Assembly (NCBI GenBank): GCA_007376385.1 | Contig: VMGC01000004.1 | Location: 71,207 to 135,206 of the forward strand | Reading direction: 5' to 3' | Source: Parcubacteria group bacterium Gr01-1014_8 | GTDB lineage: Bacteria; Patescibacteriota; Minisyncoccia; Phycocordibacterales; UBA2100 | Length of the DNA: 64,000 bases | Shown here: positions 6,456 to 50,220 of the stretch, one piece after another | Numbering within the stretch: the first letter of the stretch is position 1 | Layout of the letters: each line of letters begins with the position of its first letter | Translations under genes and position numbers: made by a program | The notes under the pieces: generated by a model | The model's input: only the letters and a program-made list of their open reading frames with translations | Database searches by the model: none | What the model was told of the DNA's origin: nothing

Positions 6456-7367
6456 CTACAGCCATTTGCGCCGTTTGAAATACCACACCATAAGCGCGCC
6501 CGCAGTTGCGACTATGCCGACAATGATCCAGAAATCGTAGGGCAGACCTACGATCGGATTGGATCTCGCATTGATGTCGAAAATAGCAACGAAAAGCGAA
6601 AGAGGGAATGTAAGGAGTGCCATGATGGTAAGAACGCGCATTGTCTCGTTCTCTTTCGTCGAAAGAAGAGAGTTATTGGTTTCGCGCAATTCGTGGAGGA
6701 CCTCTGTAAGTCTCATGACATGATTGTGTACTCGATAATATTCGTTCGACAAGGCGCGCAAATAACTGACGAATTCTTCTCCAAAGAACATCTGACCGTC
6801 TTTATCGAGCGTGTGGAGTACGTCTCTGTGCGGTTCAATAGTTTGCCTTAAATTCAGCAGGTCTCTTGCGCTTCTTGAAAGCCGCTCGACCATGCCAACT
6901 TCGTGGCCGGAAAATATGTTCTCTTCAATATGCGAAAGGTCGCTTCGCACGAAATCAATTTCATGCTCAACGGCCTTATAGAGACGCTTGAGCATGTAGT
7001 AAAAAAGAAAGCCGGCATGATCTCCCATGACGCTTTTATCAAGAATTGAATTCACTTCAAAAAGCTTGGAAAATGTATGCAGCGGGTCAATGGTGTCGTA
7101 GTGAGTAGTGATGATGAATGACTTGCCTATGACAAAATCTATTTCTTGCTCGATGGTTCTGTGCGTGTGTCGTAGAGCAGGGAAGTGGAGAATAGCGTAG
7201 ATGTAATCGTTATAGAATTCGACTCGAGGTTTCGCAGTCGGTAGAAGAAGTTCTTCCGCGATAAGGTGGGCAAGGCCGAATTCATCCATAACAGCGCGGA
7301 CCTCTTCGCGGGTAGGGGATTCGAGGTCTATCCACACGAGCGATGAATGCTCATGGCGTGACAACAT
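6456..7367 (-). CDS. CorA-family divalent cation transporter with non-canonical GMN motif
   Basis: CorA-like N-terminal cytoplasmic domain (WIDLESPTREE...), two C-terminal TM helices, C-terminal YFKRRKWL; the YGMNF position reads FDINA. Confidence 0.75.
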   Translation of the reverse strand: MLSRHEHSSLVWIDLESPTREEVRAVMDEFGLAHLIAEELLLPTAKPRVEFYNDYIYAILHFPALRHTHRTIEQEIDFVIGKSFIITTHYDTIDPLHTFSKLFEVNSILDKSVMGDHAGFLFYYMLKRLYKAVEHEIDFVRSDLSHIEENIFSGHEVGMVERLSRSARDLLNLRQTIEPHRDVLHTLDKDGQMFFGEEFVSYLRALSNEYYRVHNHVMRLTEVLHELRETNNSLLSTKENETMRVLTIMALLTFPLSLFVAIFDINARSNPIVGLPYDFWIIVGIVATAGALMVWYFKRRKWL

Positions 7368-12209: not shown

Positions 12210-12848
12210 GTGACGTATGCCATACGTGTCAGAGACGTTCTTTCAACATCTGAACGTCGGATATTTTCCCGCCTCTCTTCCCCGCGGAAGCTTCAGGATT
12301 TCTTAGAATCTATTCCGATCAATTTTGAGCAAAAAGGAGAAACCAACCACTCCCCCGAAAACGTCCTAAAAACCGGGGAAGCCCATTGTTTTGAAGCGGC
12401 TGTATTTGCCGCCGCGGTACTTGCCTACCATGGCCGGAAGCCTCTCCTCATGGATTTTGCGACTGCATATGACGATGAAGACCATACAGTTGCCCTTTTT
12501 CGAGAAAGCGGCCTCTGGGGCGCGATCAGTAAGACAAACCATGCAGTACTACGCTACCGAGATGCTGTTTATAGGACTCCGCGCGAACTCGCACTGTCTT
12601 ATTTCCACGAATACTATATGTGGGATGGCAGAAAGTCTTTGCGCGCTTTTTCTAAGCCGTTTGACGTATCTCGCTATGCGCCTGAAAAATGGATAACGAC
12701 GGAAACGAGCCTAGACTGGCTCATGGATAGAATTTCCAAGTCTCCCTATTATGCGATGGCGCCGGAAAAAGCTCTTAAAAAGCTTCGACCTGCCTCGCCT
12801 ATCGAACTTCGTGCGCTGAAACTGACAGAATGGAAAAAGAAAGTCTAG
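12210..12848 (+). CDS. transglutaminase-like (cysteine-peptidase fold) protein; GTG start at 12210 preferred over the annotated upstream ATG (12144)
   Basis: GEAHCFEAAVFAAAVLAYHG...DEDHTVALF resembles the Cys/His/Asp core of the transglutaminase-like superfamily; a TATAAT box at 12198-12203 lies inside the longer ORF. Confidence 0.4.
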   Translation: MTYAIRVRDVLSTSERRIFSRLSSPRKLQDFLESIPINFEQKGETNHSPENVLKTGEAHCFEAAVFAAAVLAYHGRKPLLMDFATAYDDEDHTVALFRESGLWGAISKTNHAVLRYRDAVYRTPRELALSYFHEYYMWDGRKSLRAFSKPFDVSRYAPEKWITTETSLDWLMDRISKSPYYAMAPEKALKKLRPASPIELRALKLTEWKKKV

Positions 12849-14112: not shown

Positions 14113-15444
14113 TTACGAAAGAGAAGCTATGGCTTTGCTGACGCGCCGCACTGTCTCATCCTTACCGAGGATCGAAGCAACAAGAAAAGGGTCCGGTGAC
14201 TGTTCTTTGCCGGTAAGAGAGTATCGAAAAGGCCAAAGAACTGCTCCCCTTCCCTCTTTAGTGGCGTAGGGCCAAAGCGCATCTTTTATCGAGGATACGT
14301 CGAATACATTCAACGCTTCAAGCAGAGTCTTGATATCCCTAAGATGCTCGGCAGTTTTTGCGGCGCTGATCTTCTTCATTGGAATGAGATGTGCCTCTAC
14401 TGAGGGCTGAACGAAGAAATAGTCGTATTCGCCGTTCATTGATTGTTCGTGAATGTCGCTCCATACAGAAATTCGCTCGCGAACAAGCGGAATGATCTTT
14501 TTTGCAATGGATTCGTTCCAGTTCAAATGCGTAAGTGAATTTTCAAGCCACGACAGAGCCTCTGATGCGAACGCACTATCTGATAGTTTCAACATATATT
14601 CGCGATTGAACCATCGCAATTTCTCAACATCGAAGACTGCTCCGCTTTTGTGCAGATCTGATAGTTCGAATTCCTGTACCATCTCATCGAGCGACAATAC
14701 TTCCCTTCCTGACGGCGCAGTCCACCCCAGCGTCGCTAGGTAGTTCAAGAGCGCTTGGGGCAGATATCCCTTTTCCCTGTAATTCTTTACAGCAACGTCG
14801 CCCTTTCGCTTGGATAATTTTGCCCGGTCGAGGCTCAGGTGCAGAGGATAATGGGCGTACATGGGTCTTTTCGCGCCGAGTGCTTCTTGAATGAGAATTT
14901 GACGCGGCGTATTAGATATATGGTCCTCCCCTCTGATAACGTGCGTAATTCCCATAGCCGCATCGTCAACCACGACGGCAAGATGATACAGCGGGTCGTC
15001 CTTGGAGCGAGCGATGACAAAGTCTTTAAGCTCCGTTGTGTCAAACGATATATCGCCGCGTATGACATCAGTAAACGTGATAGTTTTGCCGGAATTCCGC
15101 AATCGAATAACGCTCACCATTGTACCGGGGTCCTTCTTACTCTCTTCGTCCGATACGTATGCTTTATCTTCATCAATAAGTTTTTCTATTTCAGCGCGAT
15201 ACACGTCGATCCTCTCGGATTGTCTATGAAATTCGTCCCATGAAAGCCCAAGCCACGTGAGCGAATCTTTGATGTCATCCTCGAATTCTCGGGTACTTCG
15301 TTCTTTGTCCGTATCCTCTGAGCGAAAAATGATGGTGCCATTGTTTTTTCGCGCAAACAAATAATTCACGATGGCCATACGCGCAGTACCTACGTGGCAG
15401 AACCCGGTCGGGCTCGGCGGAAATCTAACCCGCACGGAATTCAT
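14113..15444 (-). CDS. gltX: glutamyl-tRNA synthetase
   Basis: VRVRFPPSPTGFCHVGTARMAIVNYLFAR (HIGH region), KLSKRKG (KMSKS). Confidence 0.92.
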   Translation of the reverse strand: MNSVRVRFPPSPTGFCHVGTARMAIVNYLFARKNNGTIIFRSEDTDKERSTREFEDDIKDSLTWLGLSWDEFHRQSERIDVYRAEIEKLIDEDKAYVSDEESKKDPGTMVSVIRLRNSGKTITFTDVIRGDISFDTTELKDFVIARSKDDPLYHLAVVVDDAAMGITHVIRGEDHISNTPRQILIQEALGAKRPMYAHYPLHLSLDRAKLSKRKGDVAVKNYREKGYLPQALLNYLATLGWTAPSGREVLSLDEMVQEFELSDLHKSGAVFDVEKLRWFNREYMLKLSDSAFASEALSWLENSLTHLNWNESIAKKIIPLVRERISVWSDIHEQSMNGEYDYFFVQPSVEAHLIPMKKISAAKTAEHLRDIKTLLEALNVFDVSSIKDALWPYATKEGRGAVLWPFRYSLTGKEQSPDPFLVASILGKDETVRRVSKAIASLS

Positions 15445-15547
15445 ACCCCGTGAGAGAGATTACGCGAGCTTATGCAACAAACTCTCGGGATATTGAATTG
15501 AATGAATAGTATTGTCATATCTATTATTTTTTCTCTCATGGGGTCAT
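15443..15547. repeat. MITE/REP-like inverted-repeat unit (ATACCCCGTGAGAGAGA ... TTCTCTCATGGGGTCAT) filling the murG-gltX spacer
   Basis: Inverted arms read directly; left arm overlaps the gltX ATG, right arm overlaps the murG stop; same ACCCCRTGAGA core as units at 30712, 47342 and 48245. Confidence 0.7.
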
Positions 15548-16683
15548 AGCGGCTCGTGGGAGAGCGCGGTCTCGAGAAGAATGGTCGCAAGCTTCCCTCC
15601 CGCATCGGGTCGTGCAAATTGTGCGGCCGCGGCGGACATCTTCGCCCGAGTCATCTCATCGTTCATTACTCTGTCTATTTCTGCAGCAAGGAGATGCGGC
15701 GTCAAATTCTTTTGATCAACGACAACAGATGCTCCCGTTCTTGCATATGAGAACGCATTCTCCGTCTGATCATTTGAGATCTCCTTTGGGAGAGGAATAA
15801 TGATGCTCGGCAATTTCCACGATGCTATTTCAAAAATGGTGCCGGACCCCGCTCGGGCAACAACGAGCGATGCAATTCCCGCTGTCATTCGCAGAGCAAG
15901 CGTGTTTAGCAGTCCGAATGTACGGTAGCGTTCTTTGTACGGCGAATCTTTGAGGATGACGTTAGCTATCCCATTCAATTCTTCAAGATTAGATTTTCCG
16001 GTTTGGTGAACGACATTATATTTAGAGAGCAAGTCGGGGAGAGCGTTGAGTACGGCCTCATTTATTGCCTGTGCTCCCTGCGAGCCTCCCATGATAAAGA
16101 CTGTCGCTCGCGGCTGAAGTTTGAGAAATTCATATCCGCCCTCTTTCGTCGGATTCTCTATCTCTTTTCGTATCGGGTGTCCAATGAGAGCAATGCGCGA
16201 CTTCACTTTCGATGAATATTGCGCAACAGCTTCTGGATGAGCAACGGCGACCCATTTGGCGAATTTCGATGACCACAACGAGACTCGTCCGGGCTTTGCG
16301 TCTGCGTCGTATATGACAACCGGAATGTTTAAGGTGCGCGCTGCGTAGAGAGTCGGAAACGCCGCGTAACCGCCGGTAGAAAAGACGACATCAGGATAGA
16401 TTGAAAATAATTGGAAAATTGATTTGATTATGCCGACGAACGTCTTGAAAACGTCAAACACGTTAAGAATGCTCGGATATGTGCGCAACTTTCCTGCAGG
16501 CGAAGGCCGATAGGAAATATCATGCTCGACAAGCGCTGCGTCATCAAACGCAGGCGGACCAATGTAGAAAAATTCAGGCGAAACAAGCCGCCGCGCATCC
16601 ACGAGATCCTCAATGTGCTCCGCAACTGCAATGAGGGGATAAAAATGTCCGCCAGAGCCCCCTCCCGTGAAGACGATGCGCAT
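15544..16683 (-). CDS. murG: UDP-GlcNAc:lipid I GlcNAc transferase
   Basis: MRIVFTGGGSGGHFYPLIAV N-terminal G-loop; full-length collinearity with MurG. Confidence 0.92.
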   Translation of the reverse strand: MRIVFTGGGSGGHFYPLIAVAEHIEDLVDARRLVSPEFFYIGPPAFDDAALVEHDISYRPSPAGKLRTYPSILNVFDVFKTFVGIIKSIFQLFSIYPDVVFSTGGYAAFPTLYAARTLNIPVVIYDADAKPGRVSLWSSKFAKWVAVAHPEAVAQYSSKVKSRIALIGHPIRKEIENPTKEGGYEFLKLQPRATVFIMGGSQGAQAINEAVLNALPDLLSKYNVVHQTGKSNLEELNGIANVILKDSPYKERYRTFGLLNTLALRMTAGIASLVVARAGSGTIFEIASWKLPSIIIPLPKEISNDQTENAFSYARTGASVVVDQKNLTPHLLAAEIDRVMNDEMTRAKMSAAAAQFARPDAGGKLATILLETALSHEPL

Positions 16684-30711: not shown

Positions 30712-30817
30712 GTATACCCCATGAGATAATATCGCAACAAGTGCAACAATGCTGTTGATAATTTGATGCATTTCGAGTTTGATGTGTACGTGATTCATTC
30801 TATCTCACGGGGTATAC
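30712..30817. repeat. MITE/REP-like inverted-repeat unit (GTATACCCCATGAGATA ... TATCTCACGGGGTATAC) in the dnaK-dnaJ spacer
   Basis: 17-bp arms read directly with 16/17 complementarity; 73-bp interior contains CAACA-atgc-TGTTG mini-hairpin shared with the degenerate copy at 36818. Confidence 0.75.
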
Positions 30818-32809: not shown

Positions 32810-33626
32810 TTGTGCAAGTCAGACTTGCACAAACATGACATATTTATGAGCTGTCGTCAAAATCCATTGCCAAACGGACAAATTCATTGTCAAACGCATA
32901 CACACCATTTAATACGTCCTTTGCTGAATTTAAGAATTTCCGTTCGTCGGTTTCAACGACCTCATCAAGAGCGTCGTAGTCGAGTATCTGGGATCGCCGC
33001 GAGCCTAGAACGTCTATAAGGCTCGCGAATGGATATGCTCGTGCCTGCTGTAATGCCTCATCGTATTTCTGAAAAGCACTATCTAAGCCGCCGGGGAATC
33101 TCTCGAACGGATTTTTGACGGTAATGTATGCAAGTAAATATTGCAGATATTCATCATCATGGACGGTGCGAGCTTTGTACGAACTCTGAAACAGAGTTCC
33201 CTCTTCGCTGTACTTGGCGTTGAAATATGCTGCCATACTCGTGCATAGTCTCTGCATAAAAGCGCTGATACCATTTTCTACGTTCTCGCGTACGAGCAAA
33301 TGGAAGTGATTATCCATAAGACAGAACGCTAAGATTGACACGTATGGCTTTTGCTTTCGCCAATGTTCAGGACGTGAAAATCCGGCACGAATATTGTCTG
33401 GGCCGATATCGCGCTCCCAATTCCGCGGCGTGTTGTCGTCGTTTAGGTAACGTAGGAGTTTAAGAAATCGCCACCGGTCGTCATCGTCTCGGATTATGCT
33501 CATGCCGCGTGTACCTCTCTTCATTACATGCACGTACGAGCCGACGGAATACGGTTCTCTTCTCATACTTGACAGATTACATTATTCTTCTGCACTTGTG
33601 CAAGTCAGACTTGCACAACGCATGAC
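32810..33626 (-). mobile_element. IS200/IS605- or RAYT-like unit: HUH Y1 transposase gene bracketed by two direct copies of a 30-nt motif containing the perfect palindrome TTGTGCAAGTC-A-GACTTGCACAA
   Basis: Copies at 32810-32839 and 33596-33626 are near-identical; the only gene between them is the Y1 transposase homolog; the unit sits between grpE and dnaK. Confidence 0.65.
32844..33566 (-). CDS. IS200-like / REP-associated tyrosine transposase (HUH Y1 superfamily)
   Basis: YVHVMKRGTRGMSIIRDDDDRWRFLKLL, LMDNHFHLLV (HUH motif), YKARTVHDDEYLQYLLAYITVKNP (catalytic Tyr region). Confidence 0.75.
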   Translation of the reverse strand: MRREPYSVGSYVHVMKRGTRGMSIIRDDDDRWRFLKLLRYLNDDNTPRNWERDIGPDNIRAGFSRPEHWRKQKPYVSILAFCLMDNHFHLLVRENVENGISAFMQRLCTSMAAYFNAKYSEEGTLFQSSYKARTVHDDEYLQYLLAYITVKNPFERFPGGLDSAFQKYDEALQQARAYPFASLIDVLGSRRSQILDYDALDEVVETDERKFLNSAKDVLNGVYAFDNEFVRLAMDFDDSS

Positions 33627-45259: not shown

Positions 45260-45850
45260 TCAAGCCGTTCGCAGGATTTGAAAATCTTTCTTGAGTGTCT
45301 CTTTTAGAGACTGATTGTAAATCGCTGCCGCTGGATGATAGAGCGGCACAACTTTGACAGTTCCGTACGACGCGGTTCCATCATACGACTTGCCGTGTGC
45401 GCGACTGATAGTTTCTATTTCCAGTGAAAGTCCGAGTCTCCTCATAATGTAGTCCATTGAAAACCTACCAAGAGTAGCAATGACTTTTGGCTGAATGACG
45501 TCTATCTGCCTGTCGAGAAACGGCGCATACAATTCAATTTCCGACGGAAGCGGGTCGCGATTTTCAGGGGGCCTGTCTTTGACAATGTTCGTGATGTATA
45601 CCTCTTTCCGAGGAACACCAATTGATTCCAAGAGAGAGTCTAGAATTTTGCCGGCAGCTCCGCAGAAAGGTCTCCCCGTCAGTGCCTCATTCTTCCCCGG
45701 CGCCTCGCCAATGAACATTATTTTCGAGTCGTGGCTGCCCTCTCCAAGAACGGCGTGGTTATTATTTTTCTTGCGATACTCAGCCAACCCGCCATCTATT
45801 GCGATGACTTCATCCCGTATCTGCTTCATCTTTTCGAATTTATCGCTCAT
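45260..45850 (-). CDS. family-4 uracil-DNA glycosylase
   Basis: MFIGEAPGKNEALTGRPFCGAAGKILD (GEAPG motif with Cys ligands of the 4Fe-4S cluster), C-terminal HPAAA. Confidence 0.85.
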   Translation of the reverse strand: MSDKFEKMKQIRDEVIAIDGGLAEYRKKNNNHAVLGEGSHDSKIMFIGEAPGKNEALTGRPFCGAAGKILDSLLESIGVPRKEVYITNIVKDRPPENRDPLPSEIELYAPFLDRQIDVIQPKVIATLGRFSMDYIMRRLGLSLEIETISRAHGKSYDGTASYGTVKVVPLYHPAAAIYNQSLKETLKKDFQILRTA

Positions 45851-47079: not shown

Positions 47080-47334
47080 CTAGATACGGGCTCCTTCACC
47101 CCTCAATAGAGCACGCTTACGTCTCTCTCCGCCGCGGTTATAATTGCCTAAGCTACCGTCAGAACGAACTACTCTGTGACACGGAATAGTCGGGTCATAG
47201 TTCGTCCGCATAATCGCGCCGACTCCTCGCGCCGCTTTGGAATTTCCCGCCTTTGTAGCAACCTGTTTATAGGTCATAGAACCCCCCTTTGGGATCGTGC
47301 GTACGATATCGAGGACTTTCTCACGAAACGTCAT
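47080..47334 (-). CDS. methylated-DNA-protein-cysteine methyltransferase, DNA-binding/catalytic domain only (start at MTFREKVL)
   Basis: IPCHRVV active-site motif (PCHR), preceding helix-turn-helix YKQVATKAGNSKAARGVGA. Confidence 0.8.
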   Translation of the reverse strand: MTFREKVLDIVRTIPKGGSMTYKQVATKAGNSKAARGVGAIMRTNYDPTIPCHRVVRSDGSLGNYNRGGERRKRALLRGEGARI

Positions 47335-47341
47335 GCACGCA

Positions 47342-47447
47342 TTATACCCCATGAGATAGATCTCAAGATATGCATTCTGAATCAAATCATTCGCAGACGG
47401 ATTTCTAAAACATCAAGTCAGAGAATGTATCTCACGGGGTTATATAC
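47342..47447. repeat. MITE/REP-like inverted-repeat unit (TTATACCCCATGAGATAGA ... GTATCTCACGGGGTTATATAC) between MGMT start and nuclease stop
   Basis: Arms read directly; right arm overlaps the stop codon of 47440..48237. Confidence 0.7.
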
Positions 47448-48237
47448 CCAGAGTACCCTGAACTTTCTTCGAGTTTTTGGGCGCAAATGCGAGCATTTTT
47501 TTGCCGACTGCTTCTCGATATCGGCAATAGTCGCACTCTTCTGATGCAGATGGCAACTCATCACGTTCCAGACACAATTTTATTTCTTTGAGCGTTCCTT
47601 CGACCCACGAATCGTCACCTTTATAAGGGACGAGAGTTACCTCGAACTCCAGCAGAGCATCAAATGCCTTTTTGTCCCTATCCGCGTTCGCATACACGAA
47701 GTACCCAGTGTCAGAGACCTTGAATCCGTTCTGCCTAAAGAGCCACTGGTATATTTCCATTTGCCGTTTGTATCCATCGTGCCACTCTTGGTCCAATTCT
47801 TTTATCGTTTCGTCTTTACTCGTCGCCTTGTAATCAACGATGATAAGTTCGCCCTTTGGATCTATCCATATGTCATCCACGCCGCCGCACACCATGAATC
47901 CTGTGCTGTGGCGATGGCAGATACCCCGCTTCAATGAGTCACGCCATTCATCTATGCGCGAGTCATCGAACGGAACCGCATCAACACCGTATTCTTTCAA
48001 GAGCGGATGCGTTGTCTTTTCTGTCCGATGAATATCGAATTCCTTTTTTAACAGCGCATCAACTGCACTATTCAGATTGAACGGAAAGCCCGGCGGACGA
48101 GCTGTCCCAAGCTTGTTATCAATATAAAAACACCTGGGGCACTCAAGAAAAAGCCCTATTTTCGAGCGAGAAAGACGGAACCTATCTCCGCCATAGTTCC
48201 AATTTGGATTTCTGTCTGGCTTGTAGTAGCCGCTCAT
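47440..48237 (-). CDS. RecB-family PD-(D/E)XK nuclease, Cas4-like (stand-alone)
   Basis: GGVDDIWIDPKGELIIVDYKATSK (RecB nuclease motifs II/III), N-terminal CPRC and C-terminal CDYC (possible Fe-S cysteines as in Cas4/AddB). Confidence 0.75.
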   Translation of the reverse strand: MSGYYKPDRNPNWNYGGDRFRLSRSKIGLFLECPRCFYIDNKLGTARPPGFPFNLNSAVDALLKKEFDIHRTEKTTHPLLKEYGVDAVPFDDSRIDEWRDSLKRGICHRHSTGFMVCGGVDDIWIDPKGELIIVDYKATSKDETIKELDQEWHDGYKRQMEIYQWLFRQNGFKVSDTGYFVYANADRDKKAFDALLEFEVTLVPYKGDDSWVEGTLKEIKLCLERDELPSASEECDYCRYREAVGKKMLAFAPKNSKKVQGTLGI

Positions 48238-48244
48238 GGGACGA

Positions 48245-48314
48245 GTATACCCCGTGAGATCAAGAAATCTAAATATTTCGAACGACGTATGGGAACTTAT
48301 CTCACGGAATATAC
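48245..48314. repeat. MITE/REP-like inverted-repeat unit (GTATACCCCGTGAGAT ... TTATCTCACGGAATATAC) directly upstream of the nuclease start codon
   Basis: Arms read directly; same family core; begins 8 nt upstream of the nuclease ATG. Confidence 0.7.
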
Positions 48315-48451
48315 CACCGCCTCTGTCTGGAACATCGCCTCTGATATTCAGGTTGGAGAATATCGGAGGCGATGCATTTTTTTGCGTCGACGGAGCCGAC
48401 TAACTTCCAGCAAGCCGACCCAGGTGCCCTCGTGTTAGCGAAGGATCGGCT

Positions 48452-48938: not shown

Positions 48939-49817
48939 TCATTTTAGAGTACTGTTACCGTGCGTCAAAACGGAAGTGGGTACATCCGACATGTCGGCCG
49001 TGCAGAGATTTCGCGCTTCATCAAGTACGGCAGGAATATGACTCGGCCTGATGCCAAATTCCTCCAATAAATGTCCGTTCTTTACGTCTTTGCAGAGCAC
49101 GATCTTGTTATCCATGAGCCGGCGCTTTTCACCTTCGGATAATGTCGTAAGGCACGTAAGCGGATGAACTTTTGCTTCCTCTATCATCGAAAGAAGCCCC
49201 TTCTCGTGCGGATAGTCCCACCCGATGAGCTTCAGATCCGAACATTGGGCGTATCGAATGGCATTGCGCGTAAATCGAGTATTCGTCACCAGCCAACCTT
49301 CGTCCACGCGCGAATGCGCTTCTGGAGACTTTGCGAGGTCCTCATATCGTGCATGCACGTAGAGCGCGTCTTTGATGTCAGTTCGCCCGCCCGGATCGTT
49401 ATGGAACTTCGCCTCGACCCCTATGCGCTTCCCGTCTTTTTCAGCAAGAACGTCCACCTCGTGAGGCGCGCATCGTCCGTTCAGAGCAACTCCAGTCCAC
49501 GTTCTCCAGCCATGAGCTTTCAGAACTTCCGCAAAGAATTGCTCGAAAGGAAACCCCGACGGTCCTAAAGCAAACAGTGCGCGTTTTATGGAATACCGTG
49601 CCGCAACAGCTGGAACATTTTGATGACGGAGCATGTCGAATGCATGCCGATATATCTCCTCTGTTGATGAACCGTCGCGTACTTCGCGAACGACGTGCTC
49701 GATGATGCGCTCCCTCGCATCCTTAGCGGCTCCAGCTCGTTGAAGGGATGAATCCAGCTTCGAACGCTCGAACAATTCACGCTCTCCATCCGCTTTTGTA
49801 ATAAATAACTTGGTCAT
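48939..49817 (-). CDS. ATP-cone domain fused to Mrr-like PD-(D/E)XK restriction-endonuclease domain (start at MTKLFITK)
   Basis: N-terminal ATP-cone (KLFITKADGERELFERSKLDSSLQRAG...); C-terminal HEVDVLAEKDGKRIGVEAKFHND (D...EAK nuclease motif). Confidence 0.7.
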   Translation of the reverse strand: MTKLFITKADGERELFERSKLDSSLQRAGAAKDARERIIEHVVREVRDGSSTEEIYRHAFDMLRHQNVPAVAARYSIKRALFALGPSGFPFEQFFAEVLKAHGWRTWTGVALNGRCAPHEVDVLAEKDGKRIGVEAKFHNDPGGRTDIKDALYVHARYEDLAKSPEAHSRVDEGWLVTNTRFTRNAIRYAQCSDLKLIGWDYPHEKGLLSMIEEAKVHPLTCLTTLSEGEKRRLMDNKIVLCKDVKNGHLLEEFGIRPSHIPAVLDEARNLCTADMSDVPTSVLTHGNSTLK

Positions 49818-49818
49818 G

Positions 49819-50220
49819 CTATTTCGTAAATTCCTCCAAGACTTGGATGTTAAGAGGCTTCCCGTCCAAGGTTGCGATAAAAGAAACACCAACGGAAGGC
49901 GCAAATACCACGGTCTCAAATTGCCGAACTGCCGACTCTTTTGAGCAATCGCGGTTTGGTTCTACCCACGTCTTGAAATCCACGAGATAGACAAATCTCG
50001 ATGGCTCTTGGATCGTGACGTGCAGCGTATGGCACTGAGATGGAACCATAAGCGCTCCTTTCAGATGATGTTGGCCTTGGCTTACATTTGAAAAGATCAT
50101 GAGCGGCTGTTCTACTTTTGTATACGTACTTAAGATGCTCCCAACGAACACAAATGTCGCGAACGCCACAAAGACGGATATTGTCGATATCCACAGGAGG
50201 CGCCACATCACCTCTGTCAT
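49819..50220 (-). CDS. hypothetical protein with N-terminal TM anchor
   Basis: ORF only. Confidence 0.35.
   Translation of the reverse strand: MTEVMWRLLWISTISVFVAFATFVFVGSILSTYTKVEQPLMIFSNVSQGQHHLKGALMVPSQCHTLHVTIQEPSRFVYLVDFKTWVEPNRDCSKESAVRQFETVVFAPSVGVSFIATLDGKPLNIQVLEEFTK

Follow-up and report, generated by a model that had tools for sequence, protein, structure and literature searches.

Does a nuclease gene that lies exactly between two inverted-repeat units travel with them, or was it in place before they arrived? The question is raised by a locus on contig VMGC01000004.1 of Parcubacteria group bacterium Gr01-1014_8, of which we analyzed a stretch of 64,000 nucleotides (called the window below). 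A preliminary description of this DNA had noticed a gene for a RecB/Cas4-like PD-(D/E)XK nuclease, with its stop codon inside one repeat arm, its start codon 8 nt from another and an outer partner for each arm, and had proposed either that the nuclease is the core of a small mobile or selfish element or that the locus is a repeat-insertion hotspot in a DNA repair/defense islet. The reading that we favor, with a probability of about 0.8, is that of a resident nuclease gene and two independent miniature inverted-repeat insertions of different age, members of a family linked to GIY-YIG nucleases. The features on which this reading is based are the following.

47440..48237, minus strand: PD-(D/E)XK Cas4-like nuclease gene (265 aa), outside the mobile elements, assigned by its PDDEXK_1 match and conserved synteny.
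48250..48309: upstream unit, a 60-nt core CCCCGTGAGAT...TCTCACGGAA with a decayed outer arm that has 2 mismatches in its core.
48246..48249: one copy of the duplication of the upstream unit, TATA; on the minus strand these are the first 4 nt of the nuclease -10 hexamer TATACT (48244-48249), which is followed by N6-ATG.
48310..48313: second copy of the same duplication, TATA, as read from the sequence.
47347..47439: downstream unit, a 93-nt core CCCCATGAGATAG...TATCTCACGGGG.
47440..47444: one copy of the duplication of the downstream unit, TTATA, which holds the nuclease stop codon TAA (minus strand, 47440-47442).
47342..47346: the other copy, TTATA; read on the minus strand, it belongs to TATAAT (47341-47346), after which come N6 and the ATG (47334) of the 84-codon MGMT open reading frame (ORF).
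30717..30812: third unit, between dnaK and dnaJ, a 96-nt core flanked by TATA on both sides.
15446..15543: fourth unit, between murG and gltX, a 98-nt core with a GAGAGA arm variant.
15441-15445 and 15544-15548: nonpalindromic 5-bp duplication of the fourth unit, TCATA, at the site where the murG stop and the gltX start overlap (ATGA).

The layout around the nuclease is as previously described. The ORF contains the IIVDYK motif (within LIIVDYKAT) and the two CxxC pairs, CPRC close to the N terminus and CDYC close to the C terminus. Its stop codon (TAA, the reverse complement of 47440-47442) falls within GTATCTCACGGGGTTATATAC, and its ATG (48235-48237) lies 8 nt from GTATACCCCGTGAGAT, which starts at 48245. 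The inverted partner of each nuclease-side arm is found 38 to 63 nt away, making two pairs (47346-47361 with 47425-47440 and 48245-48260 with 48299-48314) that are each 88% complementary. Thus, both flanking units are real and fit their description as MITE-like (MITE, miniature inverted-repeat transposable element) or REP-like (REP, repetitive extragenic palindrome), although the window contains four such units and not two. The element proper consists of 12-nt arms, CCCCRTGAGATA ... TATCTCAYGGGG, running from CCCC to GGGG over 60 to 100 bp (60 to 98 nt for the cores in the window), and has no ORF. Only the arms are conserved among the window units, the interiors being unrelated and giving no alignment. 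A 15-mer arm motif, allowing up to 3 mismatches, matched 10 times in the window versus 0.88 expected, and ACCCCRTGAGA, with up to 1 mismatch, matched 7 times versus 1.42; in neither case did any shuffled sequence attain the observed count.

The comparison with related genomes bears directly on the question. The gene order YceG-MnmA-(small ORF)-ATP-cone/Mrr-MgtC-nuclease-MGMT...UDG (UDG, uracil-DNA glycosylase) is kept in five related loci (L003, L004, L006/7, L121, and L122). The arm motif was not found in L003 to L007, and the MgtC-nuclease-MGMT order occurs without either unit in L003, L004, and L122 and with the upstream unit alone in L121. The empty sites that the preliminary description had suggested looking for are therefore present in L003 and L122 and, for the downstream unit, in L121, and the units appear as clean indels in the two locus alignments (A2 and A3). 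In L122 (79% identity), TTATACT-N7-ATG precedes the nuclease and TGA-TTTGC-TATACT-N6-ATG precedes MGMT. L121 (87% identity) has an orthologous 59-nt upstream unit and a downstream spacer of just 12 nt, and the nuclease-MGMT spacer measures 12 to 17 nt where the downstream unit is absent (L121 and L122); in L004 the two genes overlap by 4 nt, and in L006 the MgtC-nuclease gap is 18 nt. The empty-site relatives retain GGTATACT-N7-ATG ahead of the nuclease, and the left flank of the upstream unit, GGCGGTGG-TATA, aligns with the empty site GGCGG-TATA-CT of L003. Relatives with zero or one unit indicate that the two units are separate insertions, the upstream one older and the downstream one younger and lineage specific. 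The nuclease identities of 87%, 86%, and 86% leave the branching of the window, L121, and L003 unordered, and the upstream insertion can be dated only roughly. L003 (86% identity), which lacks both units, carries an unrelated inverted-repeat insert in its downstream spacer (6801-6937), made of AATAACCAA / TTGGTTATT repeats; the same tiny spacer has hence been colonized independently by another repeat family.

The sequence of the window itself tells the same story. Facing the nuclease, one unit ends (...GGGG) on one side and the next begins (CCCC...) on the other, and this polarity of the arms, ...GGGG-[gene]-CCCC..., places the gene between two elements and inside neither. The target-site duplications sought at the unit ends exist for each unit separately, TTATA for the downstream and TATA for the upstream one, and the segments 47342-47444 and 48244-48313 each show an intact copy on both sides of the unit. 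Removing the downstream unit in silico gives GGTATATAATGCGTGCATG, in which the nuclease stop overlaps the TATAAT-N6-ATG promoter of MGMT. Similarly, removal of the core of the fourth unit with one TCATA gives GCTATGAATTCC and restores the ATGA overlap of the murG stop and gltX start. The nuclease is thus a vertically inherited resident gene in a conserved Parcubacteria neighborhood and not the cargo of a mobile element. As for the proposed hotspot, the part that stands is that of insertions around a resident gene, while a hotspot as such is unnecessary: with 4 units and about 60 intergenic gaps, the chance of two adjacent gaps being hit is roughly estimated at 0.2.

To see how far the family extends, one genome per species in GTDB was scanned with the pattern ACCCCRTGAGA-N55-85-TCTCAYGGGGT. 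At least 113 contigs contained it, belonging to Kaiser-, Nomura-, Sacchari-, and Peregrinibacteria, i.e., the candidate phyla radiation (CPR), and also to Verrucomicrobiota, Planctomycetota, Omnitrophota, KSB1, Nitrospiraceae, Bacteroidota, and others. Core lengths cluster at 93 to 99 nt, with minor classes near 59, 78, and 85 nt. Interiors vary between genomes, while within some of them near-identical copies occupy differing sites (L017/L070, L039, L060, and L032/L073). Among 135 short units, the duplication was TATA in 36, a nonpalindromic 4-bp direct repeat (TGTA, TCTA, TACA, TGAA, and TAGA, among others) in 31, and a 5-bp repeat in 7. The total of 38 nonpalindromic direct repeats compares with a mean of 2.7 and a maximum of 9 in 2,000 permutations of the flanks. 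Direct repeats, restored targets, and empty sites are the signatures of a transposable element, and the units share terminal inverted repeats, target duplication, dispersed copies, and empty sites with MITEs. Tandem units in L014, L032, L073, and L094 share exactly one TNNA between ...GGGG and CCCC.... The arms mostly differ at one position (CCCCGTGAGA versus CCCCATGAGA): of 74 duplication-flanked units, 60 were G/A, 13 G/G, and 1 A/A. This dimorphism, seen in the window in the units at 15446-15543, 30717-30812, and 47347-47439, makes one strand carry a G.T wobble and the other an A.C mismatch; which way it faces with respect to the gene downstream is random (17 GT versus 16 AC). A search of the GTDB loci for long elements, with arms 131 to 4,000 nt apart and matching flanks, returned just adjacent short units and the GIY-YIG element of L068 described below. 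A 287-nt arm pair in L010, considered as an ORF-bearing element, turned out to be a flank duplication with no ORF.

Why do the units abut the nuclease so precisely? Their insertion duplicates a target of 4 to 5 bp with the form T(N2-3)A, in most cases TATA(A). In 42 of the 135 units, the flanking TNNA opens a TAnnnT hexamer that is followed after 5 to 8 nt by an ORF with 60 codons or more starting in ATG or GTG, versus 128 of 2,494 random TATA control sites, and a stop codon lies within 6 nt of the unit edge in 13 more. In the window, 25 of 83 long open frames show a leaderless layout, with TAnnnT followed by 6 to 8 nt and the start codon (e.g., starts at 12210, 20398, 34215, 43988, 48934, 53884, and 59259; hexamers TATACT, TATAAT, TACAAT, and TAGAAT), which suggests that leaderless mRNAs are widespread in the Gr01-1014_8 genome. 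In such a gene-dense leaderless genome, in which the promoter of the next gene directly adjoins the stop codon of the one before, the tolerated T(N2-3)A targets would be found at gene boundaries, in -10 hexamers and stop codons, and the duplication would leave a stop codon intact on one side and a -10 hexamer on the other, so that neither flanking gene loses its stop codon or promoter. The exact abutment to the start and stop codons of the nuclease would then be a result of the target preference of the element. The enrichment of hexamers may reflect a true targeting of -10 boxes, or equally it may come from a preference for TATA together with counterselection of insertions that fall within coding regions.

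The source of mobility was approached through longer elements with the same arms. Full-size members of about 280 bp have the same 12-nt arms around a single ORF of about 80 to 86 aa encoding a GIY-YIG (UPF0213/Slx1-like) protein. A metagenome scan for the 12-nt arms 245 to 275 nt apart gave at least 120 matches, and among the matches listed a GIY-YIG ORF filled the space between the arms in 117 of 120. In L068, the final codons of this ORF, Y-L-T-G-stop, are the right arm itself (TATCTCACGGGGTAA); among its best 120 homologs, the C terminus is YLTG or YLMG in about 90 and GFTP, which is a left arm read as codons, in several others. Arm-enclosed GIY-YIG ORFs are also found in L060, L047, and L099. 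The ORF matches Pfam PF01541 and the minimal proteins 1ywl (8.7e-07) and 1zg2 (5.3e-06). GIY-YIG ORFs bracketed by other inverted repeats (L102 and L083) show that this architecture is general and that the arms change from one protein lineage to another. There is no GIY-YIG ORF in the window. However, a homolog search with the TATA-flanked GIY-YIG ORF of L174 retrieved P0279, annotated as [quoted passage not shown] Its locus, L249, comes from the same sample as the window and reads TTATA, then CCCCGTGAGATAATTAGGTAC-ATG...TAA-C-TATCTCACGGGG, then TTATA again, with CCCCGTGAGATA as left arm. This element has a 277-nt core and arms identical to those of the window units, and it is sited at the TATAAT-N8-ATG of a divergently transcribed neighbor. 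With identical arms and the same duplication here and at least 117 more copies in metagenomes, it is the candidate autonomous partner, its sole ORF, the GIY-YIG nuclease, being the putative transposase. TATA or TATAA duplications are seen in a minority of the GIY-YIG copies (L151, L171, L174, and L239), of which L171 and L174 abut -10-N6/7-ATG promoters like the window units.

Outside the CPR, most GIY-YIG copies behave differently. They are flanked by TTCA and TAAA and lie inside ORFs, and joining the two sides recovers an open frame in 92 of 106 cases. The interrupted genes (in L123, L126, L127, L068, and many of L129 to L248), otherwise intact, encode integron-type integrases, YhcG-like PD-(D/E)XK nucleases, and RAYT-like transposases (RAYT, REP-associated tyrosine transposase). 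In the integrases the recurrent insertion motifs are LLGH/xDVxTTMIY, RLRV/KDVDF, RHS/FATH, and W/xxIFP, the slash marking the insertion. This pattern of interruption is homing-like or intron-like. Depending on the site, the frame is recovered in silico by taking out the core with 0, 3, 4, or 5 further nt, with no single rule. A different insertion style of the same protein family was seen in a Saccharibacteria contig (L115, 2176-2520), where a divergent GIY-YIG ORF lies between 14-nt direct repeats (AATATTCCGCGGTA) and the sequence just past the second repeat resembles the 5' end of a tRNA gene.

Taken together, the window units most likely derive, as nonautonomous forms, from a family of inverted-repeat elements with GIY-YIG genes that seems not to have been described before. 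As a mechanism, the GIY-YIG protein would bind the arms and mobilize both forms in trans. A staggered cut of the target followed by fill-in, which is our guess, would fit the duplications of 4 to 5 bp; an alternative route could be of the recombinase type, with R arm-TNNA-L arm as core site, as suggested by the tandem units that share one TNNA. GIY-YIG nucleases are known in homing, repair, and restriction, and the small prokaryotic Slx1-like proteins were treated as vertically inherited in a 2006 survey of the superfamily, in which inverted-repeat-bracketed GIY-YIG elements are not mentioned (PMC1564403). In the searchable literature, which is incomplete, we found no description of GIY-YIG genes within inverted repeats accompanied by miniature derivatives. 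We put forward more tentatively, at somewhat less than even odds, that the CCCCRTGAGATA-armed units and their relatives of about 280 bp form an unrecognized class of prokaryotic mobile element. Such a class would have a single GIY-YIG gene of about 80 aa (making it the smallest autonomous DNA transposon known) and MITE-like derivatives; it would be spread over the CPR, the PVC (Planctomycetota-Verrucomicrobiota) group, and other phyla and would target -10 hexamers in the CPR and, elsewhere, conserved motifs in integron-type integrase, YhcG-like, and RAYT-like genes.

Several points weigh against the reading that we favor. To our knowledge, GIY-YIG nucleases are not known as transposases, and we know of no GIY-YIG enzyme that joins DNA. 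The G/A dimorphism of the arms (81% of the duplication-flanked units, with A/A almost never found) is not accounted for by it. Most of the non-CPR GIY-YIG copies show no clean duplication, their TTCA and TAAA flanks reading as an extension of the inverted repeat, and the insertion chemistry may differ between subfamilies. Between their arms, the short units do not resemble the GIY-YIG element, so they are not simple recent deletion derivatives of it. Finally, when the upstream unit is compared between the window and L121 (alignment A2, our own count), the arms are about 86% conserved and the interior about 56%, which suggests a constraint in situ that would not be expected of a purely decaying relic.

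The explanation that the preliminary description had put first, in which the nuclease would be the cargo of a unit of about 834 bp bounded by terminal inverted repeats, or of a composite transposon of about 970 bp, can draw on the perfect complementarity (12/12) of the inner arms 47429-47440 and 48249-48260, on the fact that the gene does encode a nuclease, and on the small GIY-YIG nuclease gene that lies between two full units in other genomes (e.g., L060). Nevertheless, we consider it extremely improbable, since the gene keeps its syntenic place with no units (L003, L004, and L122) or one (L121), and gene and repeats do not move together. The arm polarity beside the gene is the opposite of that of a real element, each unit has its own target duplication, and the nuclease family is highly conserved, with the same neighbors at every locus examined. 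The repeat-free orthologous loci and the units at murG/gltX and dnaK/dnaJ thus dispose of a nuclease-centered selfish element. A recombinase-based origin, with cassettes of a tyrosine recombinase whose core sites are the arms (dif/lox-like, R arm-TNNA-L arm), whose crossover region is the repeat, and whose cargo is the GIY-YIG gene, would account for the single TNNA shared by the tandem units in L014, L032, L073, and L094 and for the different left and right flanks of the non-CPR copies, reminiscent of coupling sequences. The many GIY-YIG copies within IntI-like recombinase genes might seem to favor it as well, but there the element sits inside the recombinase genes and not beside them, just as it interrupts genes for nucleases and RAYT-like transposases. 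No recombinase gene was found in the window or within 3 kb of the L249 copy from the source genome, nor is there an attC-type GTTRRRY core, and we regard this origin as unlikely. Integron attC sites or gene cassettes were also considered for the units themselves and rejected, as the RYYYAAC...GTTRRRY cores are missing from the arms on reading the sequence and the window has no integrase.

The two other explanations assign the units a role in the host. As regulatory DNA, the arms would be operator or promoter modules through which a transcription factor controls repair and heat shock genes, with looping or bidirectional control made possible by their pairing. The minus-strand arrangements TCTCAYGGGG-TATAAT-N6-ATG (MGMT) and TCTCACGGGG-TATACT-N6-ATG (nuclease), the leaderless promoters abutted by 42 of the 135 units, and the promoter-proximal arm of the upstream unit, more conserved than the interior between the window and L121, are all in keeping with such a role. 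Yet the relatives run the same genes from the same -10-N6/7-ATG promoter with no arms; the units are polymorphic in presence and have target duplications; the same arms recur in unrelated phyla and within ORFs, with random orientation toward the downstream gene (17 GT versus 16 AC); and no -10 hexamer adjoins the fourth unit, whose site is a stop/start overlap. Nor did we see an arm-associated conserved DNA-binding protein or a regulon-like conservation of arm positions. Regulation is thus a quite unlikely origin of the family, while individual copies may have been secondarily co-opted for it. If instead the units acted as structured RNA (for processing or stability, as terminators, or as genes for small RNAs), the closing stem of 10 to 17 bp formed by the arms, folding z-scores of -1.5 to -3.6, and the G.U pair that the G/A dimorphism yields on one strand would be expected. 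We find this very unlikely, as that strand can be either one with respect to the gene downstream, at random, no structure is shared by the interiors, and the arms are conserved in sequence and not through covariation. The Rfam 15 covariance models had no match at gathering score in the window, where a scan for tRNA and tmRNA was also negative, and in 15 other unit-bearing loci gave just tRNAs and an FMN riboswitch, away from the units; target duplications and an ORF-bearing form indicate a DNA element.

Returning to the resident gene, the family assignment of the nuclease is well founded: a profile search gave a match to Pfam PDDEXK_1 (3.6e-13, 50.4 bits against a cutoff of 22), and with IIVDYK present it belongs to the superfamily. 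PADLOC Cas4 profiles match it at 1.5e-12, whereas the Cas4 models stay under their curated cutoffs (TIGR00372, 41.1 versus 65 bits; Pfam Cas_Cas4, 18.0 versus 22.7), and a PDB sequence search found no match. The cas1 partner that had been sought is not in the window: neither cas1 nor cas2 appeared among the L001 gene calls (10 kb on either side of the nuclease) or in a window-wide Pfam sweep, and no array-like tandem repeats typical of a CRISPR array were detected in the window. A CRISPR-associated identity was rejected on the scores below cutoff and the lack of cas genes or an array nearby. The gene calls and the Pfam sweep likewise showed no DDE transposase, integrase, or recombinase gene in the window. 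More than 8,000 homologs at about 70 to 87% identity occur in Kaiserbacteria and Paceibacterota (Parcubacteria). The protein resembles Cas4/RecB nucleases in its IIVDYK core, in the cysteines at both ends, as in the iron-sulfur clusters of Cas4, and in its matches to Cas4 profiles; it differs in its scores below the curated cutoffs, in having no cas genes or CRISPR nearby, and in its conservation beside MGMT and UDG. From this position, it looks like a repair-type solo nuclease. The neighboring genes named by the preliminary description were all recovered, and they are listed here with the other features of the window.

47080..47334, minus strand: MGMT-domain gene (84 aa; Pfam DNA_binding_1, 1.7e-27) with a leaderless-type start, a neighbor and not part of an element; its orthologs in L003, L004, L121, and L122 have 84 to 85 aa.
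45260-45850: UDG gene, a neighbor of the nuclease.
48939-49919: ATP-cone/Mrr gene, a neighbor of the nuclease.
48333-48382, plus strand: 17-bp GC-rich hairpin followed by a T7 run, CATCGCCTCTGATATTC...GAATATCGGAGGCGATG-CATTTTTTTG, between MgtC and the upstream unit, terminator-like yet on the strand opposite the flanking genes.
32844-33566, minus strand: RAYT-like Y1_Tnp (IS200-like) gene (240 aa; Pfam, 2.7e-11), between grpE and dnaK.
32810-32832 and 33596-33618: perfect 23-nt palindrome TTGTGCAAGTCAGACTTGCACAA flanking the RAYT-like gene, with no more copies in the window.

The segment 32810-33618 shows the classic arrangement of a RAYT gene with its REPs and has no relation to the CCCC arms. 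A Kaiserbacteria relative (L006/L007, 8103-8801) has a Y1_Tnp gene (weak match) between UDG and peptidase M3, so RAYT-like genes recur near this repair-gene neighborhood.

The locus itself is therefore rather ordinary, with no nuclease-driven selfish element and no CRISPR link. What deserves attention is the repeat family, with its near-identical 12-nt ends across distant phyla, its clean insertion signatures, and a minimal GIY-YIG protein as its sole gene. If this protein mobilizes the family, its nuclease class would be new as a prokaryotic transposase, and the minimum size of an autonomous element would be lower than known so far. That -10 hexamers are preferred in leaderless CPR genomes provides a direct handle on how streamlined genomes tolerate mobile DNA and on where their promoters are located. 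Annotation pipelines miss these elements, labeling their ORFs "putative endonuclease," "GIY-YIG nuclease family protein," or "excinuclease ABC subunit C."

Among known repeat systems, the closest parallel is with bacterial MITEs such as the Correia/NEMIS repeats of Neisseria. Like them, the units are ORF-less, 60 to 150 bp long, and bounded by terminal inverted repeats, and they duplicate a short AT-rich target; they too have many intergenic copies, ends at or recreating -10 boxes, a hairpin when transcribed, and presence/absence polymorphism. Unlike them, they have arms conserved across many phyla around unrelated interiors, their partner, whose arms are identical, codes for a GIY-YIG nuclease and not for a DDE transposase, T(N2-3)A (4 to 5 bp) is duplicated rather than TA, and the arms are G/A dimorphic.

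The REP/REPIN-RAYT systems, based on Y1 HUH transposases, resemble the family in their short, hairpin-forming intergenic inverted pairs of about 100 nt, and the window does contain a RAYT-like gene. However, the arms of the units are not palindromes, and target duplications are present, which single-strand transposition by HUH enzymes does not make. A REP/RAYT identity of the units was rejected on these grounds (arms not self-complementary, duplications present) and on the different palindrome of the RAYT-like gene. With GIY-YIG homing genes and with UPF0213-Slx1-like proteins (1ywl and 1zg2) the family shares the minimal GIY-YIG domain, and, as in homing elements, many GIY-YIG copies interrupt conserved motifs of conserved genes. 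In contrast to homing genes, there is no intron or intein context here; the ORF lies within inverted repeats of 12 to 16 nt that overlap its stop codon, and it is accompanied by ORF-less miniature derivatives and, in the CPR subfamily, by target duplications.

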